From assembly GCA_051313645.2 (NCBI GenBank), contig JBNRSN020000003.1:19344001-19408000 (forward strand): a DNA stretch of 64,000 bases. The letters run 5' to 3'. The notes below the pieces were generated by a model. That model was not told the DNA's origin. It did not search any database and was given only the letters and a program-made list of their open reading frames with translations. Position 1 is the first letter of the stretch. The number at the start of each line of letters is the position of its first letter. Source of the DNA: Centroscyllium fabricii (lineage: Eukaryota). A program made the position numbers and the translations under genes. Of the stretch, positions 2,341 to 63,658 are shown piece by piece.

Positions 2341-3217
2341 AATTCAAATTCAAGTTTTATTGTCATTGCAGAGTACTAGTACAATACAACGATACGAAGA
2401 CTCTCCCGAGAGTAGTGCAAATAAATTACATGCAAATTGCATACAGTAAAGTACACTATCAGGCGTGCAGATACCGGAGTTTATTTTTTTAGAGTTCAGG
2501 AGGCTGACAGCCCTGGGGAAGAAGCTGTTCTGAAATCTAGTCGTGCGGGTGCGAATTGCTCTGTCGCGTCTCCCGGAGGGCAGGGGGGCGAACAGACTGT
2601 GGCTGGGGTGTGTGGGGTCTTTAATAATGTTCAGAGACCTCTGTAGGAAGCGTTTGAGGTAGATGCATTGAATTGACGGTAGCTGGGTGCCGGTGATTCG
2701 TTGGGCAGTTTTGACTACCCGCTGCAGGGTTTTCCGGTCCGAGATGGTGCAATTTCCATACCAGACAGTGATGCAGCTTGTCAGTATGCTTTCTATTGTG
2801 CAGCGGTAGAAGTTGGAGAGGATGCCGGATGACAGCCTGGCTTTCTTCAGCTTCCTTAGGAAGTACAGGCGCTGTTGGGCCTTCTTAACCAGAGAGGAGG
2901 TGTTTAGTGACCAGGAGAGATCTTCCGAGATGTGGACCCTGAGGAACTTGAAGCTGGACACCCTTTCCATCTCAGCCCCTTGGATGAAGATGGGGGTGTG
3001 TCTTCTGCTTCCAGTCCTCCGGAAGTCCACTATGATCTCCTTAGTTTTCTTGGTGTTCAGTGCCAGGTTGTTGTCGGCACACCAACCCACAAGGCGCTGG
3101 ATCTCATCCCTGTAGGCTGACTCGTCGTTGTTGGTGATCTGGCCAACCACCGTGGTGTCATCCGCAAACTTGATGATCGTGTTGGAGCCATGGACAGCCG
3201 CACAGTCGTGAGTGAAG
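2341..3217 (-). mobile_element. Rex1/Babar LINE, 5'-truncated RT C-terminus
   Basis: [60 protein letters not shown]; tail tgcaatgacaataaaac(ttgaa)n. The first ~17 aa of the ORF-track protein come from flanking DNA. Confidence 0.92.
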
Positions 3218-3451
3218 GATGCTGACAAGCAACCTGCTGCTATGCCTCTATAGTTATCCATCAGCAATTTCCCAAGAGTAAGCTGGAGTAGCTCATCCTC
3301 AATTCTGCCGACGTGAGAAGCTGCTGCCTTCCATTTGATACCTCATTCGGATGGCAGAGTTGGGACTGGGCACTCAGAGGAAAGAGAATCAACACAAAAA
3401 TACTCACCAATGTGCCATCAAGAAGAAAGAAAGCTTACCATCAATGTAGTG

Positions 3452-7136: not shown

Positions 7137-8471
7137 TGTGCCTGAAAGACTACTGCCCTGTCGCACTCACACCCATAATCATGAAGTGTTTCGAGCGGCT
7201 GGTCCTGGCCCACATCAAAGCCAGTGTCCCCGCCGCCCTGGACCAATATCAGTTCGCCGATCGAGGAAACAGATCAACGGAAGATGCAATCACTACCGGC
7301 TCTTCACTCTGCACTAAACCACCTGGATAGCAAAGATACGTATATCAGAATGCTGTTTATTGACTACAGCTCAGCATTTAACACCATCGTCCCCAGCAAG
7401 TTGTCTACCAAACTCCTCACCCTCGGCCTGAACACCTCCCTCTGCAACTGGACCCTGGACTTCCTAACCAACAGACCACAGTCTGTGAAGTTAGGCAACC
7501 TCACCTCCCCCACCCCACCCCTTACCCTGAACACAGGGCCCCCACAAGGCTGTGTGCTGAGCCCCCTCCTCTACTCCCTCTTCACTCACGACTGTGCGGC
7601 TGTCCATGGCTTCAACACGATCATCAAGTTTGCGGACGACACCACGGTGGTTGGCCAGATCACCAACAACAATGAGTCAGCCTACAGGGATGAGATCCAG
7701 CGCCTTGTGGGATGGTGTGCCGACAACAACCTGGCACTGAACACCAAGAAAACTAAGGAGATCATAGTGAACTTCCGGAAGACTGAAAGCACAAGACACA
7801 CCCCCATCTTCATCCAAGGGGCTGAGGTGGAAAGGGTGTCCAGCTTCAAGTTCCTCGGGGTCCACATCTCGGAAGACCTCTCCTGGTCACTAAACACCTC
7901 CTCTCTGATCAAGAAGGCCCAACAGCGCCTGTACTTCCTAAGGAAGCTGAAAAAAGCCAAGCGGTCATCCGGCATCCTCTCCAACTTCTACCGCTGCACA
8001 ATCGAAAGCATACTGACAAGCTGCATCACAGTCTGGTATGGAAACTGCACCATCTCGGACCAGAAGGCCCTGCAGCGGGTAGTCAAAACTGCCCAACGAA
8101 TCACCGGCACCCAGCTACCGTCAATTCAATGCATCTACCTCAAACGCTGCCTACAGAGGTCTCTGAACATTATTAAAGACCCCACACACCCCAGCCACAG
8201 TCTGTTCGCCCCCCTGCCCTCCGGGAGACGCGACAGATCAATTCGCACCCGCACGACTAGATTCAAGAACAGCTTCTTCCCCAGGGCTGTCAGCCTCCTG
8301 AACTCTAAAAATAGACTCCGGTACCTGCACGCCTGATAATGTACTTTACTGTATGCAATTTGAATGTCATTTATTTGCACTACTCTCGGGAGCGTCGAGT
8401 CTTCGTCTCGTTGTATTGTACTGGTACTCTGCAATGACAATAAAACTTGAATTGAATTGAATTGAATTGAA
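7137..8471 (+). mobile_element. Rex1/Babar LINE, 5'-truncated, nested in CR1 ORF1
   Basis: RT motifs [39 protein letters not shown]; (TTGAA)n tail; ATTGAA on both sides; near-identical to 2341-3217. Confidence 0.93.
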
Positions 8472-25111: not shown

Positions 25112-25185
25112 GGCCGGTTAGCTCAGTTGGTTAGAACGTGGTGTCAGTAACGCCCAGGTTGCGGGTTCGATTGCTGTATGGGCCA
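25112..25185 (+). pseudogene. Degenerate tRNA-Ile(AAT)-derived sequence; anticodon position now reads AGT
   Basis: ggccggttagctcagttggttaga..ggttcgat..gggcca aligns to the recalled vertebrate tRNA-Ile-AAT with ~10 substitutions, including stem mismatches. Confidence 0.8.
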
Positions 25186-25254: not shown

Positions 25255-26998
25255 TTTTCAGATGGCACGAAACTTGAAAGTGTAGTAAACAGTGAGGAAG
25301 ACAGTGATAGACTTCAAGAGGGCATAAACAGGCTGGTGGAATGAGTGGCCACATGGCAGATCAAATTCAACGCAGAAAAGTGTGAGGTGATACATTTTAG
25401 TCGGGAGAATGAGGAGAGACCATACACACTAAATGGTACAATTTTAAGGAGGGTGCAAGAACAGAGATAGATCTGGGGATGCTGGAGCACAAATCTTTGA
25501 AGGTGGCAGGACAAAGCAGTTCATAAAGCATAAGGGATCCTGGGCTTTATAAGTACAGGTCCGACACCGTTAATCCAGCATGGGCGGGACCAGGCCGGTG
25601 CCGGATTAGTGAAAACTCCGAACGATTGAAGCTTCGGCGAGCGCATGCGCAGATCATTCAAAATGGCCACCGTGAAAGCCGGCGGCCATTTTGAATGGTC
25701 TGCGCATGCGCTCGCCGAAGCATCAATCGTTCGGGACTATTCAAAATGGCTGCCGCGAAGGCCGGCAGCCATTTTGAATGGTCTGTGCATGCGCTCGCCA
25801 AAGCATCAATCGTTCAGGGAGGCCATGGGCATGCGCATGCGCAGCCAAGCGCGGCAGCCATTTCACGCATGCGGTGACCAGTCTGGCAGTCGGGGAGAGG
25901 CCCGCAAGTGTGGCGGCCAATTTGCACATGCGCAGACCAGTTGGCCGGATTCGTTCCGGACGACTGAAGTTAGCGGATTACCGGTGTCCGGATTAACGGT
26001 GCCGGACCTGTACAGGCGTAGAGTACAAAAGCCAGAAAGTTATGCTAAAGCAAAATAAAACACTAGTTCGCCCCTAGCTGCAGTAGTGTGTCGAATTTTG
26101 GCACCACACTTTCGGAAGGACGTGAAGACTTTGGAGAGGGTGCAGAAGAGGAGAGAAACTGCAAAGTGCTACAGTACAAAGGGATCTGGAGGTCCTGGTG
26201 CATGAAACACAGAAGGTTAGTCTGCAGGTACAGCAGGTGATCAGGAAGGCGAATGGAATCTTGGCTTTTATTGCAAGGGGGGTGGAGGATAAAAGCAGGG
26301 AAGTCTTGCTGCAGTTTTACAGGGTACTGGTGAGGCCACACCTGGAATGCTGCGCACAGTTTTGGTTTCCATATTTACGAAAAGATATACTTGCTCTCGA
26401 GGCAGTTCAGAGAAGGTTCACTCGGTTGATTCCGGAGATGAGGGGGTTGGCTTATAAGGAAAGGTTGAGTAGGTTGGGCCTCTACTCATTGGAATTCAGA
26501 AGAGTGAGAGGCGATCTTATCGAAACATATAAGATTGTGAGGGGGCTTGATCGGGTGGATGCGGTGAGGATGTTTCCACTGATGGGTGAGACTAGAACCA
26601 GGGGCATAATCTTAGAATAAGGGGCTGCCCTTTCAAAACTGAGATGAGGAGGAACTTTTTCACTCAGAGGGTGGTGGCTCTGTGGAATTTGCTGCCCCAG
26701 AGAGCTGTGGAAGCTGCGACATTAAATAAATTTAAAATGGAGATAGACAGTTTCCTAGCTGATAAGGGAATAAGGGTTTACGGGGAGCGGGCAGGGAAGT
26801 GGACGTGTTCGGATCAGCCACGATCCTGTTGAATGGCGGAGCAGGCCCGAAAGGCCGTATGGCCTACTCCTGCTCCTACTTCTTATGTTATGTTAAGAGC
26901 TTTACAAGAATGATTCCAAAGATGAGGGACTTCAGTTACGTGGATAGACTGGAGAAGCTGGGGTTGTTCTCCTCAGAGCAGAGCAAGGCCAAGAGGGG
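25255..26998 (+). mobile_element. Nested CR1 fragments (old copy split by a MITE and by a younger CR1 at ~26150-26895)
   Basis: LVRPHLE, RRVRGDLIETYK and RNFFTQRVV motifs. Confidence 0.85.
25556..26010. mobile_element. TA-flanked Tigger/pogo-like MITE, family T1
   Basis: TIR CAGGTCCGACACCGTTAATCC / GGATTAACGGTGCCGGACCTG; TA on both sides. Confidence 0.88.
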
Positions 26999-27019
26999 GT
27001 CTGCTAGAAAAGCAAAATA

Positions 27020-27756
27020 CCGGTACTCAACCCTTCATCCGAAAACCTCAGGACCGGGTGGGTCTCGGTTTTTTGATAAATACGGTTTTTAGAGTTGGCC
27101 CCAGTGCGCATGCACATTATCGTGTTTGCGGTCCAGCTTGCAGTCGGGGAACGGCATATCGGCCGTTTGCGGGGGGCAGACCGGCCGTTTGCGGGGGAGA
27201 CCGGCCGTTTGCAGGGGGGAGACCGGCCGTTTGCAGGGGGGAGACCGGCCGTTTGCAGGGGGGAGACCGGCCGTTTGCAGGGGGGAGACCGGCCGTTTGC
27301 AGGGGGGAGACCGGCCGTTTGCAGGGGGGAGACCGGCCGTTTGCAGGGGGGAGACCGGCCGTTTGCAGGGGGGAGACCGGCCGTTTGCAGGGGGGAGACC
27401 GGCCGTTTGCAGGGGGGAGACCGGCCGTTTGCAGGGGGGAGACCGGCCGTTTGCAGGGGGGAGACCGGCCGTTTGCGGGGGGAGATCGGCCGTTTGCGGG
27501 GGGAGATCGGCCGTTTGCAGGAGGAGATCGGGCGTTTGCGGGGGGAGATCGGCCGTTTGCAGGAGGAGATCGGCCGTTTGCAGGAGGAGATCGGCCGTTC
27601 TTTTCCTCAACACGGCATCAACAGCACGAGATCGGGGTAGGAACGTGTTTTTTCTGCTGCAGCTTAAATCATTTTTTACTTATATAAACTGAAGAAAAAC
27701 TTCGGTTTTTGGAGCTTTTCGGTTTTTGGAGTTGCAGATAAGGGATTGTGTACCTG
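27020..27756. mobile_element. TA-flanked MITE, family T3, with internal 22-bp minisatellite
   Basis: TIR-like C(C/A)GGTAC.CAA.CC(C)TT..; removing it and one TA restores agcaaaatactgcggatgctgg, seen intact at 54958. Confidence 0.88.
27160..27599. repeat. 22-bp minisatellite, ~20 copies
   Basis: Unit ccggccgtttgcaggggggaga, with variant units at the right end. Confidence 0.95.
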
Positions 27757-28349: not shown

Positions 28350-29780
28350 TAACCATCGGTAAAATAATGGGACTAAAAGTCGACTGGTCCCCTGGACCTG
28401 ATGGCCTACATCCTAGGGTCTTAAAAGAAGTGGTTGCAGAGATAGTGGATGCGTTGGTTGTAATCTACCAAAATTCCCTGGATTCTGGAGAAGTCCCAGC
28501 GGACTGGAAAACAGCAAATGTGACGCACCTGTTTAAGAAAGGAGGGACAGAGAAAGCAGGAAACTATCGACCAGTTAGCTGATCATCTGTCATTGTGAAA
28601 ATGCTGGAGTTAATTATTAAAGAAGTGATAGCAGGACATTTAGAAAATCATAATACAGGTTGTGCACCGAAAATCCGTGTCCCGAATAGCCGGCAGCTTC
28701 AGTCTGCCGGCACAAATTGCCCTGACTGCACTGCGCATGCGCAAGATGGCAGCCGCCATTGTGGCTTCAGCGAATGATCTGCGCATGCGCCGAGCGCATG
28801 CGCAGATCATTCAAAACAGCTGCCGGGTGTTTTGAATGATCTGCGCATGCGTCGCCGGACGGTTAGCGCATGCGCAGATAATTCAATACGGCCGCCGGTT
28901 ATTTTCTCCACAGCTGAGCCCCGTGACTGAGGCGGACAGTCACTAGGCAACAGCTGTCAGCCTGAGTCCCGCTCGGCGGCAGCAGCAACCCGAAAGGCAA
29001 TGGAGAGGGACGGCGGACCCGGGCCTGATCTGTGCATGCGCGCGCCAGCCAATCCCAATGTTGCGCGCATGCGCGCGGCCATTTTGAATGGTGCGCATGC
29101 GCAGTGTCCAACCTCGTTCTCCCGGTTTTTTCCATTTCCCGGCACGGGCCTGGTCCCGCCCGTGGCGGATTAATGGTGCACAACCTGTACAGTCAAGCAG
29201 AGTCGGCATGGTTTTATGAAAGGGAAATCATGTTTGACAAACTTGCTGGACTTCTATGAGGATGTAATGAGCAGGGTGGATAAAGGGAAACCAGTAGATG
29301 TTGTGTATTTGGATTTCCAGAGGGTATTCAATAAAGTGCCACATAAAAGGTTACTGCACAAGATGAGAGCTCACGGTGTCGGGGGCAAACTGTAACTAGT
29401 GGGGTTTGGCTACATTACACTCGGTCCCTTCATCCAAGTCATTTAGATTGTAAATAGTTGAGGCCCCAGCACTGATCCCTGCGGCACCCCACTAGTTACC
29501 ATTTGCCAACCGGTAAATGACCCATTTATCCCGACTCTGTTTTCTGTTGGTTAGCCAATCCTCTATCCATGCTAATATATTACCCCCAACCACGTGAGCT
29601 CTTATCTTGTGTAGTAACCTTTTATGTGGAGATGGATAGATTTTTGAACGATAAGGGAGTCGAGGGTTATGGGGAGCGGGCAGGGAAGTGGAGTTGAGGC
29701 CAAGATCAGATTAGCCACGATCTTATTGAATGGCGGAGCAGGCTCGTGGGGCCGAATGGCCGACTCCTGCTCCTATCTTA
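28350..29780. mobile_element. Rearranged CR1 ORF2 fragments (+ 28350-29400, - 29420-29628, + tail 29628-29780)
   Basis: SPGPDGLHPRVLKE, GNYRPVS and YLDFQ motifs, with strand switches. Confidence 0.8.
28656..29187. mobile_element. TA-flanked MITE, family T2
   Basis: TIR CAGGTTGTGCACC..AATCCG; TA duplication inside the CR1. Confidence 0.88.
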
Positions 29781-30970: not shown

Positions 30971-31421
30971 CAGGTTGAGCACCTCCCGGGCCGGGAAAGT
31001 GAAAAAAACGCTAGAATGAAGTCGGTCAGTGCGCATACACCATTCAAAATGGCCACGCGCATGCGCACAACATTGGAAATGGCCGCCGAACGTCCTTGCC
31101 AAGTCTCAGCTGCGGTTTGTGCCTCCTGATGACGGCCTGCAGGCTGCTCCGGGGAAAGGCGCACTTCACCATGGCGGGCCCTCGGGACTCGCACATTCAA
31201 AACGTGGCGCGAGCCGCCGCGCCCTGACGCCACGGAAGGCCCGGCTCCCGTTTTGAATGATCTGCGCATTCGCTCGCCGTTCGGCGGCGCATGCGCAGAT
31301 CATTCGCTGAAGCCTCGATCGCGGCGGCCATTTTACGCATGCGCATGGCAGTCGGGGCAATTTATGCCGTGAAACTGAAGCTGCCGGCTTTCTCGGTAAC
31401 GGGTTACAGGTGCCCAACCTG
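30971..31421. mobile_element. MITE family T2 (reverse orientation relative to 28656)
   Basis: CAGGTTGAGCACC / GGTGCCCAACCTG; internal similarity to 28690-28815. Confidence 0.8.
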
Positions 31422-31624: not shown

Positions 31625-33031
31625 TTAGATACATAGATACATAGAAAACCCTGTTCCTGGGACTAGGGACAGGGTCACTGGCAAGGCTTGGAAGCTAAGC
31701 AGAGCCGGGCCTGGTTAGTACTTGGAGGGGCGACCACCAGGGAATAACCAGGTGCAGAAGGTCACGAAAGGAGCCCCGGGGAGGGGCGGTTGGCTGAAGA
31801 TTGTCGGAATGATGGAAAGATGGAATGGCGGCGCGCACAGACGCAGCGGCTTTGCTGGACTCTTGGGAGCTTGCAAGATCACATTTCGTTGTTCATGTAC
31901 TTGTACATTGTATAATGACAATAAAGTTGAATTATTATTATTATTAAAATAGATGCAGGAGTAGACCATTCGGCCCTTCGAGCCTGCACCGCCATTCAAC
32001 ACGTTCATGGCTGAACATGCTACATCAGTACCCCATTCCTGCTTTCTCGCCATATCCCTTGATTCCCCCTAGTTGTAAGTATTACATCTAACTCCCTTTT
32101 GAATATATTTAGCGAACTGGCCTCAACAACTTTCTGTGGCAGAGAATTCCACAGGTTCACCACTCTCTGGGTGAAGAAGTTTCTCCTCATCTCAGTCCTA
32201 AATGGCTTACCCCTTATCCTTAGTCTGTGCCCCCTGGTTCTGGACTTCCCCAACATTGGGAACATTCTGCCCGCATCCAACCTGTCCAAACCCGTCAGGA
32301 TTTTAAACGTTTCTATGAGATCTCCCCTCATTCTTCTGAACTCCAGAGAGTACAAGTTCAGTTGATCCAGTCTTTCTTGATATGTCAGTCCGGCCATCCC
32401 GGGAATCAATCTAGTAAACCTTCGCTGCACTCCCTCAATAGCAAGAATGTCCTTCCTCAAGTTAGGAGACCAAAACTGCACACAATACTCCAAGTGTGGC
32501 CTCACCAAGACCCTGTACAACTGTAGCAACACCTCCCTACTCCTGTACTCAAATCCCCTCTCTATGAAGGCCAACATGCCATTTGCTTTCTTGACTACCT
32601 GCTGTACCTGCATTTGCACCTTCAGTGACTGATGTACCATGACGCCCAGGTCTCGTTGCACCTCCCCTTTCCCTAATCTGTCACCATTCAAATAATAGTC
32701 TGTCTCTCTATTTTTACCACCAAAGTGGATAACCTCACATTTATCCACATTGTACGTCATCTGCCATACATTTGCCCATTCACCTAACCTGTCCAAGTCA
32801 CTCTGTTGCCTCTTAGCACCCTCCTCACAGCTCACACTGCCTCCCAACTTAGTGTCATCCGTAAATTTGGAAATAGAACATTTAATCCCTTCGTCCAAAT
32901 CATTAATATATAATGTAAACAGCTGGGGCCCCAGCACCGAACCTTGCGGTACCCCGCTGGGCACTGCCTGCCACTCTGAAAAGTACCCATTTACTCCTAC
33001 TCTTTGTTTCCTGTGTGCCAACCAGTTCTCT
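31625..33031 (-). mobile_element. CR1 RT and 3' end with ~340 uninterrupted codons
   Basis: [32 protein letters not shown]; (tatgtatc)n tail split by the 5S-SINE. Confidence 0.92.
31649..31946 (+). mobile_element. 5S rRNA-derived SINE with Rex1-type tail, copy 1
   Basis: 31690-31761 matches the 3' half of 5S rRNA (ggaagctaagcag..gcctggttagtacttgga); tail tgtataatgacaataaagttgaa(tta)n; near-identical copy at 63363. Confidence 0.88.
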
Positions 33032-34061: not shown

Positions 34062-34389
34062 CAGGTCTGGCACCGGACGACTGGTCTGCACATGCGCAAA
34101 ATGGCCGCCGCGCTTGGCTGCGCATGCCCGGGCCTCTTCCCGACTGTCAGACAGGTCTGCGCATGCGCAAAATGGCCACCGCGCTTGGCTGCGCATGCCC
34201 GGGCCTCTTCTCGAACGATTAATGCTTCGGCGAGCGCATGCGCAGACCATTCAAAATGGCTGCCGGCCTTCGCGGCGGCCATACTGAATGGTCTGCGCAT
34301 GCGCTCGCCGAAGCTTCAATCGTTCGGATTTTTCACTAATCCGGCTCCGGCCTAGTCCCGCCGGTGCTGGATTAACGGTGTCGGACCTG
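34062..34389. mobile_element. TA-flanked MITE, family T1 (left end partly deleted)
   Basis: CAGGTCTGGCACCG / GGATTAACGGTGTCGGACCTG, TA flanks. Confidence 0.85.
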
Positions 34390-35462
34390 TAATGGAATTG
34401 CTTAACTCTCCTGGTAGCCTAAAATGGTCTTCAGCTTACGGGCAACAGCAAAGACACCAAAGTAAATCAAAAAGGAACGGCAGCGCAAACTACAACGGGC
34501 CCCTATTATAAGCCGGCCTTTGATAGTAATACCGGAAATATGCCAGAATGAAGGGTGTGCAATGGGGAATTTAGCCAATCAGTTGTCCACTAGGGAGTCA
34601 TACGTCTGCTAGCATTGATTGAAATGACAAAATTAGAGTATCAATCTTATTAAAATTGGTAGACATGAAAAATATGTTACTGGCGTCAGTTGACTCAGAT
34701 TCCGGAATCGATAGTGTGCTGTTCCAATCAATGCGCCATCCTTTCCAGAACTGCACACAGTAGATTCAGTTTCAGTATCGAGCTGCATATTGTGCTCTTT
34801 TGACAGGCTATATTTCTGTGGATATTTATTTCTGTGTGACCGCACCAGGATAAGCGATTCCATTTCGCGCATGGGTGACATTCTATGCCCGTAACTGAAC
34901 AATCTCAGTACCGGGGAACTTTCAACCACATTCGCAACACAGACGACTGGAGTTGGTCTGGCTGGACCATGCTTTCACCTTGATGTCGTGCAGTGTGCAT
35001 TGTTTTGACACGAATCCAGCTGTCAAACCCAAAACTGCATTGCATCAAGATGAACCAACCTTGTTTAGATTCCAATGTCTCCTGCGTGACATTTCAGCCA
35101 GATCAAGTTCTTGAACAATTCTGAAAGCTCATCCAAATTTTAGATGCGATTGGTGTTCTGATTTCTCAAACTGGATCAGTGGAATTCTGCTTTGCTGTTT
35201 GTCGACGCAAGCATGTGCAAAAAAATATCTACAGATTAGTTCTGGTGTTGTGCGGCTATCGAAATGTGACTGATTCATGTGTATTTTGTTGGGGAGTGAA
35301 ATAATTTGTTGGGGGGTTTCCTAGCTTTATATTAACTGAAAGAAAGACAGACTTGCATTTATAGGGCGCCTTTTAGGACCTCAAGATGCCTCAAAGCACC
35401 GAACAGCCAATGAAGCACTTTTCTGAAGTGCTGTAATTTAGGAATGTGCAAAGTATTGGTGA

Positions 35463-38874: not shown

Positions 38875-40870
38875 ACAGAATAACATAACAATTAGGAGCA
38901 GGAGTCGGCCATACAGTCCCTCGGGCCTGCTCCGCCATTCAATAAGATCATGACTGAATTTCTACCTCAACTGCATTTTCCTGTCCGATCTCCATATCCC
39001 TCGATTCCCCTCGAGTCTAAAAATCTAGCGATCTCAGCCTTGAATATTCTCAAAGACTCAGCATTCACAAGCCTCTGAGTGAAGAAATTCCTCCTCATCT
39101 CAGTCTTAAATGGCTGATCCCTTATCCTGAGACTATGCCCCCTAGTTCTAGACACTCCAGCCAGGGGAAACAACCTCTCAGCATCTACCCTGTCAATCCC
39201 CCTCAGAATCTTGTATGTTTCAATGAGATCACCTCTCATTCTTCTAAACTCCAGAGAGTATCGGCCCATTCTACACAATCTCTCATCATCGGACAGCCCT
39301 CTCATCCCAGGAATCAATCGAGTGAACCTTCATTGCACCGCCTCCAAGGCAAGTATATCCTCCCTTAGATAAGGAGACCAAAACTGTGCACAGTACTCCA
39401 GGTGTGGTCTCACCAAGACCCTGTACAATTGTAGCAAGACTTCCTTACTCTTATACTCCAACCCTCTTGCAATAAAGGCCAACATGCAATTTGCCTTCCT
39501 AATTGCTTGCTGTACCGACATGCTAGCTTTCTGTGTTTCTTGCACAAGGACATCTAAATCTTTCTGAACACCAACATTTAATACTTTCTCACCATTTAAA
39601 AAATATTCTGTTTTTCTATTCTTCCTACCTTTTTGCCCACTCACTTAACCTGTCTATATCCTTCCGCGGGCTTTGTGTCCTCCTCACAGCTTACTTTCCC
39701 ACCTAGCTTTGCATCGTCAGCAAACTTAGATGAAGCGACCAAGTGCAATATATCCAAGTCATTCAAGCAGATTGCAAATAGCTGAGGACTGATCCTAGCA
39801 GCACACTCCACTAATTACAGCCTGCCAACCTGAAAATGACTCATTTATCCCTACTCTGTTTTCTGTCCATTAACCAATCCTCTATCCACGGTAATACACA
39901 GAAACACTGAAGATAGGAGTAGGAGTAGGCCAGTCGGCCCTTCGAGCCTGCTCTGCCATTTTGATGAGATCATGGCTGATCATCCAAACCCAGCAACCCC
40001 CCTCCTACCCTCTCCCCATATCCCCCATATCCCCCAATACTAAGAACGATGTGAGGCAAGATGGCGGCGCGTGTATATGCAGTGGCTTTGCGTCTCCGGA
40101 GTTAACGCTGTCTGCTGCAGTTCTGGGTCTGTTCGCTCAGAGAGGACGGCATGGTCGGCGAGGTGGTGTACCGGGGTCGGCGCGGCGGAGTTGTCGGAGC
40201 ACCGGGGTGTCTGCGGTCGGAGTATCGGGGGCGCACTGAGGCCGGCATGGTCGGAACGCCAAGGCCTTGAGGTCTGAGTGTTTGGAGCCGGAGCCTGCGT
40301 GGTCGCTGAGGTCGGAGCGCCGGGCCCTGCGTAGTTGGAGCGCCGGGGCCTTGGTCGCCGAGGTCGGCGCGTCGGAGCCTGCGTGGTCGTGGCGCCGGAG
40401 GTCGGCGAGTTCGTAGTGCCGGGGCCTGCATGGTTGGAGCACCGGGACCGTTATGGAATGGAACAGACTAGGACTTCAGTGGAGGACATTTTGACATCTG
40501 CGTTGTTCTTGGGGGTTTGGCAAGAACTGCATTTCGTTGTATGGTGTTTGTTCGCTATACAATGACAAATAAATTGAATCTGAATCTGAATCTGAATATC
40601 TCACACACATACTCATGGGCATTTTTTTAGTATCTCCAATTCACCTAACCTGCATATAGACATCACCCCCAACCCCATGTGCCCTTATCTTGTGTAACCA
40701 CCTTTTATGTGGCACCTTATCGAATGGCACTTAGAAATCCAAATATACGGCATCCACCTTCCCTCCTTTATCTACCCGACATCCTCAAGAAACGAATACA
40801 TTTGTTAAACACAATTTCCTTTTCATAAAACCATGTCGACTCTGGCTATTCATATTATAATTTTCTAAGC
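38875..40870 (-). mobile_element. CR1 RT and 3' end, interrupted by an HE1-B fragment (39896-40655) that itself contains a Rex1-tailed element
   Basis: LVRPHLEYC and RRMRGDLIETYK motifs; RT resumes at 40656. Confidence 0.82.
40051..40596 (+). mobile_element. Non-autonomous bipartite Rex1-like retroelement with GC-rich internal repeats
   Basis: Starts ..caagatggcggcgcg; ends catttcgttg..tacaatgacaaataaattgaa(tctgaa)n; no RT. Confidence 0.75.
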
Positions 40871-43943: not shown

Positions 43944-44482
43944 CAGGTTGAGCACCGGTAATCCGGCACCCGATGGTCCGGCACGAATGGAAACCGGCCG
44001 TCTTCAGTTTGCGGAGCAGCCACTCGGCGGAGCCACCATTTCCCGCAAAGGGTGAGCAAGCGCCAAAGGAGTCGGGCGTTTGGGTTGCTGCTTTTTTAGG
44101 CCTTGTAAGTGTTCTATCTCCGGGCTCCCTCCCGGGAAGTGTTCTATCCCCGGGTTCCCTCCCGGGGAGTGTTCTGTCCCCGGGCTCCCTCCCGGGAAGT
44201 GTTCTGTCCCCGGGCTCCCTCCCGGGGAGTGTTCTGTCCCCGGGCTTCCTCCCGGGGAGTGTTCTGTCCCCGGGCTCCCTCCCGGGGAGTGTTCTGTCCC
44301 CGGGCTCCCTCCCGGGGAGTGTTCTGTCCCCGGGCTCCCTCCCGGGGAGTGTTCTGTCCCCGGGCTCCCTCCCGGGGAGTGTTCTACCCGCGCGCTCCCC
44401 CCGAACCTTCAGTGGTTCGTAATTTTCAATGGTCCAGCACCGGCCTGGTCCCGAGGGTGCCGGATTACCGGTGCTCAACCTG
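43944..44482. mobile_element. TA-flanked MITE (T2-type TIR) with 30-bp minisatellite
   Basis: Perfect 28-bp TIR CAGGTTGAGCACCGGTAATCCGGCACCC; TA flanks. Confidence 0.92.
44108..44390. repeat. 30-bp minisatellite, ~9.5 copies
   Basis: Unit gtgttctgtccccgggctccctcccgggga. Confidence 0.95.
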
Positions 44483-45223
44483 TACTTAGCATACAATTTT
44501 AATGGCAATGTTTACTATTATGCATAGTTATGGTATGATTTTCCCCCTAATTGGCCCGGGATTTTATCTGGTTTCTCACCTCTCAGAAGATTGCGTGGCT
44601 TCCGGGCGGGGTGTGGCGTGTCTGTATTGTGATGCATAAGTCATCACAACCGTACGGGACAGGCCGGCCGGATGGACCAGTGGGTCTGTTCCTGTCCGTT
44701 ATTTCTCGTATGTTCGTACAGCTCCCCTTACTTTCATCCAACATCCCCTGGCCATTTACCTCATTGCCGCTTGTGGGATCTTGCTGTGCAGACATTGGCT
44801 GCTGTGTTTGCTTGAATTGCAGCAGTGACTACACTTCAGAAGTACTTCATTGGCTGTAAAGCAACTTTGGGACATCCTGAGGTCATGACAGGCGCTGCAG
44901 AAATGCAAGTCTTTCTTTAACGGTTACTGTACTTCAGAGGCAAATCATCAGTTGTAAAGATCGTTGGGACACCCCGAGGTCGTGAATGCAAGTTCTTAAA
45001 CAGTACCGCAATCACATAAGGCTTCACAGGATTGCTGCAATCCATTTCTTTATAAGGTTGGAGAGATCTTAATTTATTCCTTCATTAAAATATTTTCCTA
45101 ATAAACCGTGAAACAAACAATATTTATTAATTACCCAGAACTTAAGTCCGTGATTTTTTTTTTCAATGCCCGTTATATATAAAACAATCTAATTTGTCTG
45201 AAGTTATGGCATTTTGTACCTAA

Positions 45224-45937: not shown

Positions 45938-47123
45938 AAGAACATAAGTAGGAGCAGGAGTCGGCCATTCGGCCCCTCGAGCCTGCTCCGCCATTCAATA
46001 GGATCATGGCTGATCATCCAAACCCAGTACCCTGTCCCTGCCCTCTCCCCATATCCCTCGATCCCTCTCGAGCCTGCACCGACACATATCCCACCCTATC
46101 CCCGTAACCCCACATATTCAATCCCCCTAACATTAAGGGTCAATTTATCCTGGCCAATCAACCTAACCCGCACATCTTTGGACTGATCATGACTGATCCG
46201 AACTTAGACTAACGTCCACTTCCCTGCCCGCTCCCCGTAACCCCGTATTCCCTTATCAGCTAGGAAACTGTCTATCTCCATTTTAAATTTATTTAATGTC
46301 GCAGCTTCCACAGCTCTGAGGCAGTAAATTCCATAGATTTACTTCCCTCTGAGTGAGGAAGTTTCTCCTCATCTCAGTTTTGAAAAGGCAGCCCCTTATT
46401 CTCAGATTATGCCCCCTAGTTCTAGTCTCACCCATCAGCGGAAACATCCTCGCCGCATCCATCCGATCAAGCCCCCTCACAATCTTACGTGTTTCGATAA
46501 GATCGCCTCTCACTCTTCTGAATTCCAATGAGTAGAGGCCCAGCCTACTCAACCTTTCCTCATAAGCCAACCCCCTCATGTCCGGAATCAACCGAGTGAA
46601 CATAGAAACATAGAAACTAGGAGCAGGAGTAGGCCATTCGGCCCTGCGAGCCTGCTCCGCCATTTAATGAGATCATGGCTGATCATCCAAACCCAGTATC
46701 CCGCCCCTGCCCTCTCCCCATATCCGTATCGAGCCTGCACCGACACATATCCCACCCTATCCCCGTAACCCCACATATTCAATCCCCCTAACACTAAGGG
46801 TCAATTTATCATGGCCAATCAACCTAACCCGCACATCTTTGGACTGTGGGAGGAAACCGGAGCACCCGGAGGAAACCCACACAGACACGGGGAGAATGTG
46901 CAAACTCCACACAGATAGTACCCGAGGCTGGATTTGAACCTGGGTCTCCAGTGCTGTGAGGCAACAATGATAACCACTGTGCCACCGTGCCGCCCTTCTC
47001 TGAACTGCCTCGAGAGCAAGTATATCTTTTCTTAAATATGGAAACCAAACCTGTACGCAGTATTGCAGGTGCGGCCTCACCAGTACCCTGTATAACTGCA
47101 GCAAGACTTCCCTGCTTTTATAC
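45938..47123 (-). mobile_element. CR1 3' portion with HE1 insertions (about 45950-46185 and 46599-46995)
   Basis: GLYSLEFRRVRGDLIET; HE1 V-domain. Confidence 0.85.
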
Positions 47124-47363
47124 TCAATTCAATTCAATTCAAGTTTTATTGTCATTGCAGAGTACTAGTACAATACAACGAGACGAAGACTCGACTCTCC
47201 CGAGAGTAGTGTAGACAAAAGAAATAAATTACATAAATAAATTGCATACAGTAAAGTTCATTATCAGGCGTGCAGGTACCGGAGTTTCTTTTTAGAGTTC
47301 AGGAGGCTGACAGCCCTGGGGAAGAAGCTGTTCTGAAATCTAGTCGTGCGGGTGCAAATTGCT
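47124..47363 (-). mobile_element. Rex1 3'-end fragment
   Basis: Near-identical to 2341-2560. Confidence 0.9.
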
Positions 47364-53411: not shown

Positions 53412-53539
53412 GTGGGTACTCCAGGAACAGCAGTGAAACAGCCAAGGATGGAAGTCGAAAGAGAGCTGGAGGCTTAGTGGAATCAATGTTCAACATGTCC
53501 AATCAATACAGAACAATCAACAAAGCTGAATAACGGCGA

Positions 53540-54795
53540 TAGGTTAATGACCAACATTCACTACAAGCCCACTGACTCCCACAGCTACCTGGACTACACT
53601 TCCTCCCACCCCGCCTCCTGTAAGGACTCTATTCCATTCTCTCAGTTTCTCCGTCTCCGCTGCATCTGCTCTGACGATGCCACCTTCCACACCAGTGCTT
53701 CCAATATGTCTTCCTTTTTCCTCAACCAAAGATTCCCCTCCACCGTGGTCGACACGGCCCTCGACCGGGTCCGTTCCATCTCCCGCACTTCTGCCCTCAC
53801 CCCTGCCCCTCCCTCCCGCAACCACGATAGGGTTCCCCTTGTCCTCACCTTTCACCCCACCAGCCTCCACATTCAACGGATCATCCTCCGTCATTTCCAC
53901 CACCTCCAACATGATCCCACCACCAAACACATCTTCCCCTCCCCTTTCAGCATTCCGTAGGGACCGTTCCCTCCGAGACACCCTAGTCCACTCATCCATC
54001 ACCCCCAGCACCCCTTCCCCTTCGCCCGGCACCTTCCCGTGCAAGCGCAGGAGATGCAACACCTGCCCTTACACCTCCCCCCTTCCCACTGTCCAGGGCC
54101 CCAAACACCCCTTCCAAGTGAAACAGCGATTTACTTGTACTTCTTGCAATCTAGTACACTGTATTCGCTGCTCACGATGTGGCCTCCTCTACATTGGGGA
54201 GACCAAACGCAGATTGGGTGACCGCTTTGCGGAACACCTCCGTTCAGTCCGTAAGGGTAACCCTGAGCTCTCAGTCACCTGTCACTTTAATTCTCCGCTT
54301 CACACCCACTCTGATCTCTCTGTCCTTGGCCTATTACATTGTTCCTCGGAAGCTCAGCGTAAACTCGAGGAACAACACCTCATCTTCCGATTAGGCACTT
54401 TACAGCCCTCCGGACTCAATATTGAGTTCAGCAATTTCAGATGATAACCTCGGCCCCCATTATATCTTTACCTCTTTATCCACACCGTTTATTTGGCCTT
54501 TCTTTTCTCTATCGTGGCAGCCCCCTCCCGTTCTGCCAGAGTTTTTCACACCTAATCTACAGCTATCTCCTGTCCACAGCATCTCGTCTCATTTTCAAAA
54601 CCTCTCTACGACTTTTCTCTTTGTGCTGTCTTCCCTTTGTTCCCTCCCACCTTCCCCCACCTTCCTGCTTGTTTCATTCCCCAGCTTTAGTCTTGATAAA
54701 GGGTCCCGACCCGAAACGTCGACTCTATATTTCTCTCCACCGATGCTGCCTGGCCTGCTGAGTAGTTCCAGCATTTTCTGTTGTTAGTTCAGATT
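53540..54795 (+). mobile_element. Penelope-like element: RT thumb, GIY-YIG endonuclease, pseudo-LTR
   Basis: YKPTDSHSYLDYTSSHP..SIPFSQFLRLR; CKRRRCNTC; NLVHCIRCSRCGLLYIGETKRRLGDRFAEH; frameshift near 53940. Confidence 0.93.
54689..54724 (+). ncRNA. Minimal hammerhead ribozyme motif, U3-A8 core variant
   Basis: agtc-TTGATAA-a-gggt-cccg-accc-GAAA-cGTC-gact. Confidence 0.65.
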
Positions 54796-54954: not shown

Positions 54955-55157
54955 ATAGCAAAATACTGCGGATGCTGGAAATCTGAAATAACTGAAAATG
55001 CTGGAAATACTCAGCAGGCCAGGCAGCATCCGTGGAGAGAGAAACAGGGTTAACGTTTCAGGTTGGGTCCCAGACCTGAAACGTTAACCCTGTTTCTCTC
55101 TCCACGGATGCTGCCTGGCCTGCTGAGTATTTCCAGCATTTTTAGTTGTTATTTCTG
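54955..55157. mobile_element. Inverted pair of Penelope pseudo-LTRs (hairpin)
   Basis: ~68-bp perfect arms (54996-55063 / 55074-55141) around the loop tgggtcccag. Confidence 0.88.
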
Positions 55158-56944: not shown

Positions 56945-57248
56945 TGTGGCGGATCGCCACGGACTTACGGACGAATCAGCCGGACTCTTGGACCCTGAAG
57001 GCACTGGCCCCGAGGCGCGCTACTCTCGCGAGGCCAGTGCCGACGCAAAGACGCCCCGCGCATGCGCACAACGCGCCCGACGCGCAGACGCACATACGTC
57101 ATTGGGTTTAAATGTAATGACGTAGCCCGCGCTACTTATTCAAGCAAAAGGGCGCGAAAGCGCACACTCTGTAGTTCAACTCAATAAAGAAAGTCGTTTT
57201 ACCGTTACCTGTCTCAGGAGTTCTTTCGCCCGCCAACAAAACTCAACA
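56945..57248 (+). repeat. 5' LTR
   Basis: Direct repeat of 61113-61416 with 6 differences by eye; AATAAA at 57183. Confidence 0.95.
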
Positions 57249-57288
57249 TTGGTGACCTCGACGTTCGGAACGTATTTCGAACTCAACG

Positions 57289-60200
57289 ATGGCGGACGCA
57301 AGCATAGCCGCGGTCCGGCTACCTGAGTTTTGGGTAAATCAGCCCCAAGCCTGGTTTGCTCAGGCAGAATCCCGGTTCAGACTACACCGGGTCAACAAAG
57401 AAGACGTGCGGTACGACTACCTCGTCACTTCACTGGGGAGCTCCACGGTGACGGAAGTCTGGGCAGAGCTGCAGAATCCACCTCAACAGGGCAAGTACGC
57501 ACATCTTAAGGCCGCGCTTCTTAAACGGTTCACTGATTCCCAGTACCAGCGCTGCAGCCAGCTCCTTGCCCTCCAGGGCCTCGGTGACGCTTCACCATCG
57601 CGCCTCCTCTCCCACATGCTCTCGCTCACGGACGAGAGTCCCCCGGGATCCCTCTTCCGCACGCTCTTTATTCACCAGCTTCCTCCCAGCATCCGCCCCG
57701 CCATCGTTGCGTCCGACCTCCAGAGCCTGGCAGACCTAGCCAGCCTGGCCGACAGGCTGATGGCTGGGCAACAGGGCCACGGCACCGCGGACTTGGCAGC
57801 CGCCGCCACGGCGCGACCAGCCGCTCCCACCACGCGGCCGCCAGGACCAGCCCCCAGGCCCACACGACCGCCACGTCCCCCAGACCCGCCGAATCCAGGG
57901 TACTGCTATTACCACGCCCGGTTCGGCGCCAGGGCACAACGGTGCACGCAACCCTGCACCTTTAAGCCTGCACGTTCACCAGCCCCCACCATGTCCGTAG
58001 GACACGCTGGTTGCCTCCTGTATGTCACGGATGACAAAACCGGACACCGTTTTCTTTGCGACACCGGGGCCCAGCATAGCATTGTGCCCACCTCCGCCCT
58101 CGAAATCAAAGCAGGCACGCGGGGCCCGGCGCTTGCCGCGGCCAACGGGTCCGACATCCCGACGTACGGCACCTGCACGGTCCAACTCCATCTCGCAGGG
58201 CGCCGTTATACGTGGGAGTTTCTCACCGCCAAGATACTCTCGCCAATCATCGGCGCAGACTTCCTATGCGCCCACGGCCTGCTGGTCGACATGCCCCGGC
58301 GCCGCCTCGTGGACATCAACTCCATGACCCCCATCCCAGGCGCCACGGCCCCTGCCCAGCCCGCCAATTTGACCATACAGTGCCATGCCCGTCCAACAGA
58401 CGCTTACTCGGCGCTCCTGGCCGCATTCCCGGACCTCACCAACCCGACCTTCACCGCTAGGGTAGCCAAGCACGGGGTAGAACACTTTATCCCCACCACC
58501 GGCCCACCGGTGCACGCCCACGCCCGCAGGCTAGACCCAGCCAAGTTGGAGATCGCGCGGAACGAGTTTGCCACCATGGAGCAGCTCGGCATCATCCGCC
58601 GCTCCAACAGCCCGTGGGCCTCACCGCTCCACATCGCCCCCAAGCCCGACGGGGGCTGGCGCCCCTGCGGTGATTACCGTCGCCTCAACAATGCCACCAC
58701 GCCTGATCGGTACCCAGTACCGCACATCCAGGACTTTTCGGCTAGACTGGCCAAGTGCTCAGTCTTCTCCAAAGTCGACCTGGTGCGCGGCTACCACCAA
58801 GTCCCCGTCTGCGCCGCCGACATCCCCAAGACCGCAGTCATCACTCCCTTCGGGCTGTTCGAGTTCCTGCGGATGCTCTTCGGCCTCAAAAATGCCGCGC
58901 AGGCGTTCCAGCGGCTCATGGACTCGGTCCTACGGGACCTGAAGTTCCTGTTCGTCTACCTAGACGACATCCTGGTAGCCAGTTCCTCCAAGCGGGAACA
59001 CCTCGAACACCTCAGGGCCCTGTTCACACACCTCAGCGAACACGGCCTCATTCTCAGCCCCGCCAAGTGCCAGTTCGGTCTCGACCAGATCGACTTCCTC
59101 GGCCACCGCATAACCCAGGCCGGGGCCATTCCCCTGCCCAACAAGGTGCAGGCCGTCCAGCAATTCCCCCGGCCCACCACCGTCCGGGGCCTCCAAGAGT
59201 TCCTCGGGATGGTGAATTTTTACAACCGCTTTATCCCTAAAGCGGCATCCCTCATGGGCCCCCTGTACCAAACTCTCCGCGGCAAGAGCGGCAAAATGGC
59301 GGTCGAATGGACGGAGCAAACCTCCGCCGCTTTCGACTCCACCAAGTCGGCACTCGCCGACGCCACCATGCTCACACACCCACGGCCCAACGCCAAGGTG
59401 GCACTCACCACTGACGCCTCCGACTATGCGGTCGGTGCCGTGTACGAGCAGTGGGTCGACGGCGCCTGGCAACCGCTCGCCTTCTTCAGCCGCCAGCTGC
59501 GTCCCCCAGAGGTGAAGTACAGCACCTTCGACCGCGAGCTCCTCGCCCTGTACCTGGCGATCCGTCACTTTCGGTTTCTGCTGGAAGGTCGCGCCTTCAC
59601 CGCGTTTGTTGACCATAAACCCCTGACATTCGCGATAGCAAAGCCAGCCGAACCCTGGTCCGCCAGACAGCAGCGCCAGCTCGCGACCGTGTCTGAATTC
59701 ACCACTGACATCCGCCACATCGCCGGCCGCGACAACGTGGTTGCCGACTGCCTCTCCCGCGCAACTATCAACGCCACTCACCTGGCAGTTGACTACGCCA
59801 AACTCGCAGCGGACCAGGTCACAGACCCGGACCTGCTCTCCGCGCCCACCACCCTACCCAGCCTGCGCTTGGCCACCGTCGCCTGCGGCCCCGCCGACAC
59901 TAACATCACGTGCGACATTACCCTGCCGCAACCCCGGCCTGTCGTCCCAGCATCTTGGCGCAGGCGCATATTCGACACGCTCCACAACCTCTCCCGCCCC
60001 GGCGCCCGCGCATCCATCAAATTGGTAACCAGCCGCTTTATCTGGCGCAGCCTTAGTAAAGATGTGCGTACTTGGGCCAACTCCTGCGTGGCTTGCCAAC
60101 GGGCAAAGGTGCACCAACACACGAAAGCTCCCCTCGGACAGATCGACGTCCCCGCACGAAGGTTTGACCACATCCACGTGGATATCGTGGGACCCCTGCC

Positions 60201-61092
60201 ACCTTCACAAGGCAACACCCACTTGCTCACTATCGTGGACCGCACCACTCGATGGCCCGAAGCAATACCGCTGACCTCCACCACCACTGCGGACGTCGCC
60301 AGAGCCTTCATCGCCACGTGGGTCGCCCGGTTCGGCGTGCCTTCCGACATCACGTCCGACAGAGGGCCCCAGTTCACCTCAGCACTATGGACTGCCGTCG
60401 CTAAGAGCCTCGGGGTGACCTTGCACCACACCAGGGCTTACCACCCACAAGCCAACGGTCTGTGTGAACGCTTCCACAGATCCATGAAAGCTTCTCTACG
60501 TGCCAGCCTCACGGACAACTCCTGGACTGACCGCCTCCCATGGGTTTTACTCGGCCTCCGATCTGCGGTCAAAGAAGACCTCCACGCATCGGCAGCGGAG
60601 CTAGTCTACGGCCAACCGCTGCGCGTACCCGGCGAGTTCCTGGCCGCCGCTACGACACCCTGGTCAGCCAACTAGCAACGCCTCGACTTCACCGCTTCGG
60701 CGCAACAGTTCACACCGGTACCCGTGGCCCGGCATGGTGAAACAACTGCACAGATCCCACTTAGCCTACACCAGGCGCAGTTCGTCTTCACCCGTCACGA
60801 CGCACACCGCGGGCCTCTGCAGCCGCCATACGACGGACCCTACAAGGTGCTTCAGGCGGGTGACAAGTTTTTCAAACTGCAGGTGGGCAACAGAACCGAA
60901 ACTGTGTCGATTGACAGACTCAAGCCGGCGCACACTGAGCCCGGCGAAGCCACACTAGTTGCCCACCCACCGCCACGCGGTCGACCTGCCGGCCAGCCAG
61001 CTCGCCCGACCACAACTCGCCAGCTGTCTCCAACCAAGAGCCGATCCGGCCGACTTATCAGACCGCCGCAACGACTCGTCCATTCCTCCTAA
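57289..61092 (+). CDS. gag-pol: Gag-Pol polyprotein (Gag, protease, RT, RNase H, integrase) with one in-frame TAG at 60673-60675
   Basis: LPEFW..AWFAQAE; CYYHARFGARAQRCTQPC; FLCDTGA; YLDD; TDASDYAVG; HVDIVGP..TSDRGPQF..NGLCERFH; the frame continues after the TAG to the YDGPY motif. Confidence 0.93.
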
Positions 61093-61112
61093 ACGGATTC
61101 TGGGGGGAGCTA

Positions 61113-61416
61113 TGTGGCGGATCGCCACGGACTTACGGACGAATCAGCCGGACTCTTGGACCCTGAAGGCACTGGCCCCGAGGCGCGCTACTCTCGCGAG
61201 GCCAGTGCCGACGCAAAGACGCCCTGCGCATGCGCACAACGTGCCCGACGCGCAGACGCACATACGTAATTGGGTTTAAACATAATGACGTAGCCCGCGC
61301 TACTTATTCAAGCAAAAGGGCGCGAAAGCGCACACTCTGTAGTTCAACTCAATAAAGAAAGTCGTTTTACTGTTACCTGTCTCAGGAGTTCTTTCGCCCG
61401 CCAACAAAACTCAACA
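61113..61416 (+). repeat. 3' LTR
   Basis: Follows the PPT; ends CA plus GAGT TSD. Confidence 0.95.
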
Positions 61417-61488: not shown

Positions 61489-61750
61489 TTCAATTCAATT
61501 CAATTTATTGTCATTGTAAAGTGAACATACACAAAACAACGAAATGCAAACATGCAATCTCCCAAATTATTAAAATGTCCTTTAGTCCCAGTCTGATCCA
61601 TTCCATACCACCAGGACCACCCGGCGCTGCAGCCACGATGCGCCCGGTGCCCGGCCCCCGACGGCCTCGCAGCTCCCGGCCCTCGACGGCCTCGCAGCTC
61701 CCGGCCCCCGACGGCCTCGCAGCTCCCGGCGCCCGACGGCCTCGCAGCTC
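61489..61750 (-). mobile_element. Non-autonomous Rex1-tailed element with 25-bp tandem repeat, 5'-truncated
   Basis: Tail ttacaatgacaataaa(ttgaa)n; shares tatggaatgga.cagact.ggact..aggacatttt with 40450-40490; about 4 copies of cccggcccccgacggcctcgcagct. Confidence 0.78.
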
Positions 61751-61957
61751 AGCCATGATCTCACTGAATGGCGGAGCAGGCTCGAGGGGCTGAATGGCCT
61801 ACTCCTGCTCCTATCGTCTATGTTTCTATATCTGCTTTATATTCACACTGAAGTTACAGTGCAAATGTAAGATTAATGTAAATGCTGTACATTGACGTTT
61901 TACAGTCAGATTTTCCTCATTTCACCGAGTAGCACACTTCACTAGAAGAGCATGGTA

Positions 61958-62272
61958 CAGGTCCGGCACCGTTAATCCGGAAACTTCAGTCGTCTGGCAC
62001 TAATCCGGGCTTCTCCCCGACTGGTCTGCGCATGCGCAAAATGGCCGCCGCGCTTGGCTGCGCATACCCGGGCCTCTCCCTGACTGGTCTGCGCATGCAA
62101 ATATGAACTGATGTACTCTGAGGAAATCGATGGCAAAGAGGTATGATGACTTGCGCGGCTGCCATTTTGAATGGTCTGCGCATGCGCTCGCCGAAGCTTC
62201 AGTCGTTGGGATTTTTCACTAGTCCGGCACCGGCCTGGTCCCGCCGTTGCCGGATTAACGGTGTCGGGCCTG
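61958..62272. mobile_element. TA-flanked MITE, family T1
   Basis: TIR CAGGTCCGGCACCGTTAATCCGG / CCGGATTAACGGTGTCGGGCCTG. Confidence 0.9.
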
Positions 62273-62656
62273 TACTTGAAATACACAAGTGTTCAGCTTC
62301 TTGTTGAATTCATCCTCTGGTGCGGTGCTTCACCTTGCATTCACATGTTCGACTTATGTTCGAGGTTTCTTTTGACGCAAGAGCTATTTTCCTTCAATGC
62401 TTGGCCAAAAAAAAGCGTCTTTGTATCAGAGGTTTTCAGTTTCAGCATTTAAGCTTGGGTTTACAGTACCAACGATCAGCGTGAGGTACAGATTTAGACC
62501 AGTTCCTTGACTAATTATTACATTATGTATGATTTTCTTTGAAGCATCGACACAGGTGGAACTCGGTGCAACGCAGGAAATCAATACATCCTCATATCTG
62601 AGCCAAATGTGTAAATGAAATCTGAACAAAACTTCCCTCCTTAACCTATATATTTT

Positions 62657-63362: not shown

Positions 63363-63658
63363 TGTTCCTGGGACTAGCCCTGTTCCTGGGACTAGGGACA
63401 GGGTCACTGGCAAGGCTTGGAAGCTAAGCAGAGCCAGGCCTGGTTAGTACTTGGAAGGGTGACCACCAGGGAATGCCAGGTGCAGAAGGTCACGAAAGGA
63501 GCCCCGGGGAGGGGCGGTTGGCTGAAGATTGTCGGAATGATGGAAAGATGGAATGGCGGCGCGCACAGACGCAGCGGCTTTGCTGGACTCTTGGGAGCTT
63601 GCAAGATCACATTTCGTTGTTCATGTACTTGTACATTGTATAATGACAATAAAGTTAA

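Follow-up and report, generated by a model that had tools for sequence, protein, structure and literature searches.

A young SINE with a 5S rRNA-derived head and a bipartite Rex1-type LINE body in a cartilaginous fish

SINEs with a 5S rRNA-derived head are rare. They make up 2.3% of the first release of SINEBase, and the fish families tabulated in a 2024 review, in the portion of it used here, come from salmonids and zebrafish only (PMC10946416). Zebrafish SINE3 and AmnSINE1 share the 5S-derived head (SINE3 class) with the SINE described here; they have a Deu body and a CR1-4_DR-type tail, while the present tail is unlike the CR1 ends of the locus, and vertebrate SINE3 families are reported to be moved by CR1 (Kojima 2020). 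The same overall design as found here, a 5S head followed by 5′ and 3′ parts of a LINE, was described for Ped-1, CoeSINE5 and SINE-1_Pmo with RTE as the LINE, and HaSE3 likewise has a 5S head on an RTE-derived body (PMC5786205). In this group the LINE partner is RTE and the 5′ piece comes from the 5′ UTR, whereas the present SINE has a Rex1-type partner and an ORF-start piece. The first-pass annotation of this locus had given CR1/L2-type tails for the 5S-derived SINEs that it named (zebrafish SINE3, AmnSINE1); as a general rule this holds neither for the four RTE-derived families nor for OS-SINE1, a salmonid DeuSINE that, like the present SINE, combines a 5S promoter with the tail of a fish LINE, in its case RSg-1 (PMC3747384, PMC5135761, PMC3272025). 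Compared by description, OS-SINE1 has a long conserved DeuSINE body, whereas only 54 nt lie between the head and the LINE parts here. The Deu central domain is much longer than 54 nt, and a linker of this size leaves little room for it. We take RSg-1 to belong to the Rex1/Babar clade, and the pairing of a 5S head with a Rex1 tail probably has a precedent. A LINE 5′ piece, which the present SINE has, is not mentioned in those portions of the OS-SINE1 descriptions that we used.

A Rex1 tail is also known from SINE2-5_NV of Nematostella, whose 3′ end is shared with Rex1-24_NV (PMC3747384, PMC3472496). This family has a tRNA head and a Rex1 tail only, and its tail and terminal repeat, as printed, differ from those found here. 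The SINEs reported for the same host group, the chondrichthyan HE1, SacSINE1, CmiSINEs and SINEX-1_CM, have tRNA heads and CR1- or L2-type tails in the accounts consulted. In the Repbase-wide survey of Kojima 2018 (PMC5786205), ORF-less bipartite elements are given only for the RTE, Ingi, Vingi and R2 clades and SINE middle parts only for RTE and Vingi; the term "Rex" does not occur in its text and one supplement.

We analysed a stretch of 64,000 nt from Centroscyllium fabricii (contig JBNRSN020000003.1), referred to as the window. Two near-identical elements of about 300 bp had been noticed 32 kb apart, and both are present: over 298 aligned nt they are 97.99% identical, with five substitutions and one gap. 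Each copy has the same order of parts, namely 5′ hairpin, 3′ half of 5S rRNA, 54-nt linker, Rex1 5′ piece, Rex1 3′ end and (TTA)n.

31649–31946, plus strand: complete SINE copy 1, located within the terminal repeats of a CR1 3′ tail
31649–31674, plus strand: 5′ hairpin of 11 pairs with a 4-nt loop, in place of the 5′ part of 5S
31693–31762, plus strand: 5S rRNA-derived 3′ half with internal control region, RF00001 match below gathering score
31763–31816, plus strand: linker of 54 nt, no match above chance in the window
31817–31863, plus strand: Rex1 5′-end piece, AAGATGG plus a 5-nt repeat, ATG at 31825, 13 codons reading MAARTDAAALLDS
31860–31931, plus strand: Rex1 3′-UTR end, TCGTTGT...AATGA stem-loop, AATAAA..TTGAA
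31932–31946, plus strand: (TTA)5 tail of copy 1
63363–63689, plus strand: SINE copy 2, core 63378–63689, (TTA)10 tail, Rex1 ATG at 63553

With 298 nt (copy 1) and 312–327 nt (copy 2) the elements are shorter than 1 kb, interspersed and non-tandem, as in the size definition of SINEBase. A BLAST self-search of the 64-kb window (word size 7) revealed no third copy; if the window is typical, two copies in 64 kb correspond to a Poisson 95% range of 3.8–113 per Mb. The hairpin, the linker and the LINE parts are common to both copies, which distinguishes the element from a 5S pseudogene.

The hairpin that had been proposed for the 5′ end is real: its 11 pairs, including two G.U, fold with −17.7 kcal/mol (z −3.7), and none of 200 shuffles folded equally well. 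Elsewhere in the window nothing matches its sequence significantly, the best score being equalled by 17 of 60 shuffles. For the region that follows, RF00001 (5S) is the top Rfam family at both copies (23.2 bits, E = 0.017 for copy 1; 27.6 bits, E = 0.0012 for copy 2; searches of 451 nt), both scores lying below the gathering score of 38. Only model positions ~51–120 align well, with about 46 of 69 and 48 of 70 identical columns (hand count). With the Rfam consensus and not the host 5S gene as reference, this agrees with the SINE3 definition of ≥60% identity to 5S across ≥60 nt. In vertebrate 5S numbering the A box spans +50–64, the intermediate element +67–72 and the C box +80–97, and we assume that they correspond to ~31693–31707, ~31710–31715 and ~31723–31740, respectively. 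For the linker the best match to the rest of the window is at chance level (equalled by 28 of 60 shuffles), and no tRNA was predicted by ARAGORN. By eye, 31776–31792 resembles a tRNA-like sequence at 25112, a likeness that the shuffle test of the linker did not pick up. That sequence (25112–25185, plus strand) scores 29.3 bits, just above the Rfam gathering score, gives no ARAGORN call, and is probably a decayed tRNA copy.

The LINE-derived parts were compared with the following elements of the window, all of which share the Rex1-type 3′ end:

7139–8465 (ends approximate), plus strand: 5′-truncated coding Rex1-type LINE with RT (PF00078) and PF09004, used as 3′-end reference
2341–3246, minus strand: second 5′-truncated coding Rex1-type LINE with RT and PF09004, 95% DNA identity to the copy at 7–8 kb
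47120–47330 (approximate), minus strand: short 3′ remnant belonging to the Rex1 family of 7139–8465, used for tail comparison
40048–40596, plus strand: bipartite non-autonomous Rex1-type element without 5S head, bounded by empty-site homologues, ATG at 40061
61489–61748 (5′ boundary approximate), minus strand: 5′-truncated non-coding relative with the tail most like that of the SINE, alignment score 74

The SINE tail aligns to the 3′ ends of 7139–8465, 2341–3246 and 47120–47330 with scores of 52, 39 and 43, which were reached by none of 1000 shuffles in each case. The SINE thus ends in a sequence homologous to the Rex1 3′ UTR followed by short tandem repeats, as the first-pass annotation had suggested for its tail block. 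The likeness goes less far than proposed, however. The three coding or coding-derived 3′ ends have T(C/A)TCGTTG, with (TTGAA)n rather than (TTA)n at their termini, and they lack the word CATTTCGTTG, which in the window is confined to the two SINE copies and the two non-coding elements (40530, plus strand, and 61546, minus strand). Scores are also higher against the non-coding elements (74 at 61.5 kb and 62 at 40.5 kb, versus 39–52 for coding Rex1). The coding Rex1 copies, all 5′-truncated and with a tail variant unlike that of the SINE, are not supported as its direct partner; since the tail is nearer to non-coding than to coding relatives, the exact partner LINE is absent from the window. Seven tails share TCGTTGT...AATGAC, and a stem of nine pairs is possible in all of them (63 of 63 cells paired). 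Across the seven sequences there is no two-sided compensatory change and the shuffle control performs equally (500 of 500), and the stem is not proof of structure because the changes are one-sided only. Folding of the SINE tail is no better than that of shuffles (z −0.7).

The block between linker and tail had been put forward as a possible Rex1 5′ UTR (31823–31860). Our data show that it is instead the start of a Rex1 ORF, about the first 13 codons, since its translation corresponds to the start of full-length Rex1-type ORFs. At the DNA level 25 of 31 nt are identical between 31825–31855 and 40061–40091, a score reached by none of 1000 shuffles (BLAST E = 0.02 in the window). Among longer database proteins we considered the best 120 of 987 relatives of the window RT; in 37 of these 120 a basic motif is retained ahead of the endonuclease, and 21 of the 37 start M-A/T-A/P/T. 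ORF starts of this kind include MAARVDAAA, MAARLDAAA, MAARTTDAAA and MAARAHAAA, several of them preceded by K, in agreement with the AAG ATG of the SINE. A profile was built from 20 distinct N-termini of database ORFs with RT and PF09004 and scored over 127,942 six-frame positions of the window. The SINE copies rank first (27.8 bits; none of 2000 SINE shuffles as high) and 40061 ranks third (21.2 bits), just above an unrelated non-Rex site at 29082 on the minus strand (20.4 bits). The rule for selecting N-termini was framed after the SINE peptide was known; with residues 5–9 alone, which lie outside this rule, the same three sites take ranks 1–3 among 28 prefix matches.

From an independent search came 148 new proteins; the basic motif is present in 26 of them, and three of the 26 have such a start. 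One of them, P0324, begins MAARTVAAALLSS, with 11 of 13 residues identical to the SINE peptide, while the next best site of the window reaches 7 of 13. Under a simple background model the chance of such a match is about 1e-7 after correction for positions and 47 N-termini. P0324 matches the query ORF over residues 2–490. Three database ORFs that were checked carry APE, RT and PF09004; P0324 alone gave no match to a Pfam family. When the 40-aa translation of the SINE was compared with longer proteins, none of 14 candidates reached E ≤ 10; as no more than ~13 residues derive from coding sequence, this search is not informative. The junction of the two LINE pieces lies at about 31860–31863, and the N-terminus comparisons trace the middle of this SINE to the 5′ part of a LINE. 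A hairpin of the 5′ block has the same topology in the SINE and in the element at 40048–40596, with a stability no better than that of shuffles (z about +0.5). In the full-length Rex1-type ORFs (P0034–P0116) the MAAR/MAP peptide is followed by a hydrophobic, signal-peptide-like stretch, an arginine-rich motif and then the endonuclease.

The two LINE pieces of the SINE are most probably not RTE-derived 5′ and 3′ UTR pieces; both trace to elements with RT and PF09004, which we take to be Rex1. Translated Rex1 primer-site motifs map to the RT of the element at 7139–8465, at window positions 7365 and 7926, and both occur in 99 of the best 120 of 987 database matches. The primer sites used for this mapping were taken from PMC3812791, and a DNA-level scan of the window with the published primers gave no hit, the motifs mapping in translation alone. 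The layout with a conserved 3′ UTR followed by short repeats also corresponds to that given for Rex1 (PMC6274825). ESM Atlas names for RTs of the window type are generic (RT/ALKBH8_N only). In a tree of 23 rows, which holds no named Rex1 reference and from which two intended rows were left out (no anchor motif or absent), the two window RTs group with 13 database ORFs, including P0109 and 11 with starts of the kind described above, in a single clade separate from CR1 (support 99/97). Assignment of the window RTs to Rex1 is probable and rests on the translated primer sites and on the 3′ UTR and short-repeat layout.

Bipartite non-autonomous LINEs of the RTE, Ingi, Vingi and R2 clades are internally deleted and keep both ends. 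The element at 40048–40596 fits this design: it has a MAARVYAVA start at 40061, a GC-rich tandem middle, a Rex1-type tail and (TCTGAA)n. It is a headless bipartite Rex1 derivative with the same two ends as the SINE. The first-pass annotation had placed a non-autonomous element at 40051; the match of its 5′ block stands, with the 25 of 31 nt given above, and its true span is 40048–40596. Its insertion is accompanied by a 2-bp target loss and no TSD, and a tblastn search of its middle detected no coding remnant. At its 5′ end, 40057–40068 reads CAAGATGGCGGC, which to our eye resembles a YY1 site and which the 5-nt repeat splits in the SINE. Both this element and the one at 61489–61748 have GC-rich tandem-repeat middles, the former having both of its ends. 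In their own right they represent bipartite non-autonomous Rex1 elements, a kind that is not on the list of Kojima 2018 (PMC5786205) as far as it was covered.

Taken together, we consider it quite probable that the family is a young Pol III SINE3 on a minimal bipartite non-autonomous Rex1 and is mobilised by the Rex1 RT. The 5S internal control region would recruit TFIIIA/TFIIIC, and Pol III would initiate ~50 nt ahead of the A box, where the observed 5′ end lies at the same place or no more than 5 nt away; the lost 5′ half of 5S would be dispensable, since this start fits the observed end. A transcript without a T4 run would end in the Rex1 3′-UTR stem-loop and the simple-repeat tail. The Rex1 LINE protein (APE endonuclease and RT) would bind this RNA in trans, and target-primed reverse transcription would proceed at the nicked site from the (UUA)n end. 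As to the origin, a 5S-headed RNA would have become fused, probably through template switching, with a very short Rex1 that had lost its interior and kept only the first ~13 codons and the last ~70 nt. SINE birth by fusion of a headed RNA to a bipartite LINE is the model of Kojima 2018 (PMC5786205) and Kojima 2020. A requirement for a 3′ stem-loop was demonstrated for other stringent LINEs, not for Rex1, in the portion of PMC5135761 used here. We regard it as a tentative and rather doubtful idea that the first ~40 nt of Rex1 (MAAR..AAA codons) act as a cis-acting RNA signal needed together with the 3′ stem-loop, in an undescribed family with the first bipartite Rex1 body. On this view it would make sense that a non-coding SINE has retained the 5′ block and that the peptide recurs across fish Rex1 lineages.

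It is unlikely that the element is instead a non-autonomous Rex1 carrying a dead 5S passenger, with RNA produced from one source locus by Pol II or a neighbouring promoter. Such a passenger would agree with the sub-threshold 5S match, the replaced 5′ part and the headless Rex1-type elements in the same window, and promoter boxes are only an indication according to the part of SINEBase consulted (PMC3531059). Five of the six differences between the copies fall in the 5S part (31707–31746 versus 63436–63474; P about 0.03, post hoc). Constraint on this part could be relaxed; possibly the cluster in the promoter region also reflects two source subfamilies that differ in their C boxes. At six C-box positions (+81, 82, 85, 86, 87 and 89), presumably contacts of TFIIIA, both copies retain G, with variation at the intervening +84 and +88. 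Both copies also start where a promoter of the 5S type predicts: the A-box spacing puts +1 at 31644 and 63373, 5 nt upstream of the start of copy 1 and on the ACTAG of copy 2, where the cmscan 5S alignment of copy 2 likewise begins (63373). The true SINE start may be ACTAG-CCCTG, judging from this spacing. Copy 2 has an additional 15 nt (63363–63377) that repeat element positions 4–18 and that copy 1 lacks, and its further 10 nt could stem from a cDNA end re-annealing on a second ACTAG inside the hairpin. Moreover, T4 runs are present in the 40 kb and 61 kb elements and not in the SINE, although for the SINE itself this is weak evidence, as 32% of shuffles also have none. Finally, the Rex1 start motif is internal in the SINE and broken by the 5-nt repeat.

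It is very improbable that tail and 5′ block come from CR1, L2 or RTE, or match by chance, so that the family would be an ordinary 5S-SINE with a partner of known type. The DNA match of the 5′ block, which covers only 31 nt, and the fact that no database hit gives the name Rex1 would allow this, but the identity of 11 of 13 residues to an ORF N-terminus and the separation of these RTs from CR1 in the tree argue against it. The tail matches the RT and PF09004 elements and not CR1: scores against two CR1 ends are 15 and 20, reached by 702 and 128 of 1000 shuffles. A CR1 origin of the tail was rejected on these chance-level scores.

As seen from its flanks, copy 1 splits a CR1 tail, as had been noted before, and the CR1 terminal sequence is intact at 15 other sites of the window, which serve as empty-site homologues. 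The junctions of the SINE were read off such homologues. The closest, at 16883, reads CATAGAAAATAG and implies a duplication of a 3–4 bp A-run. For copy 2 a 2-bp CA duplication is possible, and an empty-site homologue is absent from the window. An automatic TSD search returned only chance-level 3–5-mers. The only sequence in common between the 1-kb flanks (311 nt to the right of copy 2) consists of 26–39-nt pieces of a different repeat family, well away from the junctions. The possibility of shared flanks, raised in the first-pass annotation, is thereby answered, the flanks being unrelated, and the pair is not a segmental duplication because these distant repeat pieces are all that the flanks share. 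With only two copies, both on the same strand and separated by 32 kb, one could think of an assembly artefact, of a duplicated segment or of chimeric retrocopies that arose once, but this is the least credible explanation: homology stops at the element ends, tails (5 versus 10 units) and 5′ ends differ, the insertion of copy 1 into a CR1 tail left a short target duplication, and the internal junctions, identical in both copies, imply one template family. Among self-hits of at least 150 nt in the window, no pair is as similar as the SINE pair except the LTRs of a Gypsy-type element (98.0%), and the SINE family is therefore among the youngest in the window.

Of the earlier description as a recently active 5S-SINE of Rex1, youth, 5S head and both Rex1 ends are borne out, the two ends by independent evidence (ORF N-termini and the 3′ ends of window RT elements). 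Its claim to novelty stands for the bipartite Rex1 body, which is absent from the survey of Kojima 2018 and from the literature searched, and falls for 5S heads on RTE bodies and for a Rex1-tailed SINE, both published. A full-text search of mainly open-access literature found neither a bipartite-Rex1 5S-SINE nor a 5S-SINE of a cartilaginous fish, and the family may already be in Repbase or Dfam. The arrangement of the modules is new; the modules and the mechanism were already known. A young 5S-SINE in a cartilaginous fish extends the known range of these rare SINEs, and its insertions may serve as polymorphic markers. The bipartite route to SINE birth is extended beyond RTE and Vingi and, if this is true, Rex1 would be the fifth clade making two-ended non-autonomous elements and the third supplying SINE middles. 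With what would be a natural minimal Rex1 substrate of ~115 nt, the cis-requirements of a widespread fish LINE become directly testable.

Several other elements were seen in the window. The young Gypsy-type LTR retrotransposon (56945–61416, plus strand) has LTRs that are 98.0% identical over 304 nt and an open frame of 1139 aa with RT, RNase H and integrase domains. The region 53478–54441 (plus strand) contains frames with a YIGETKR motif, presumably that of Penelope-like GIY-YIG elements; Pfam gave no hit for 53551–54441. A near-perfect long inverted repeat at 55009–55128 (hairpin/MITE-like) shows sub-threshold matches to miRNA families. Members of a GC-rich repeat family, which has inverted ends and numerous GCGCATGCGC palindromes, occur at 25553–26013, 28746–29190, 31049–31400, 34083–34391, 61953–62275 and 63798–64000. 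The family is probably a non-autonomous DNA transposon, and each SINE copy is flanked by one member at some distance. Tandem arrays at 27007–27689 and 44007–44499 (units of about 32 nt and 30 nt) yield long repetitive open frames. That the host is a cartilaginous fish also follows from a CR1 RT of the window, for which the named best matches are from Leucoraja, Pristis, Mobula, Hypanus, Chiloscyllium and Callorhinchus, with about 62–71% identity (best 80); among the matches listed, weaker ones are from Mustelus (55%) and Mobula (51%) and from turtles and birds (45–52%).
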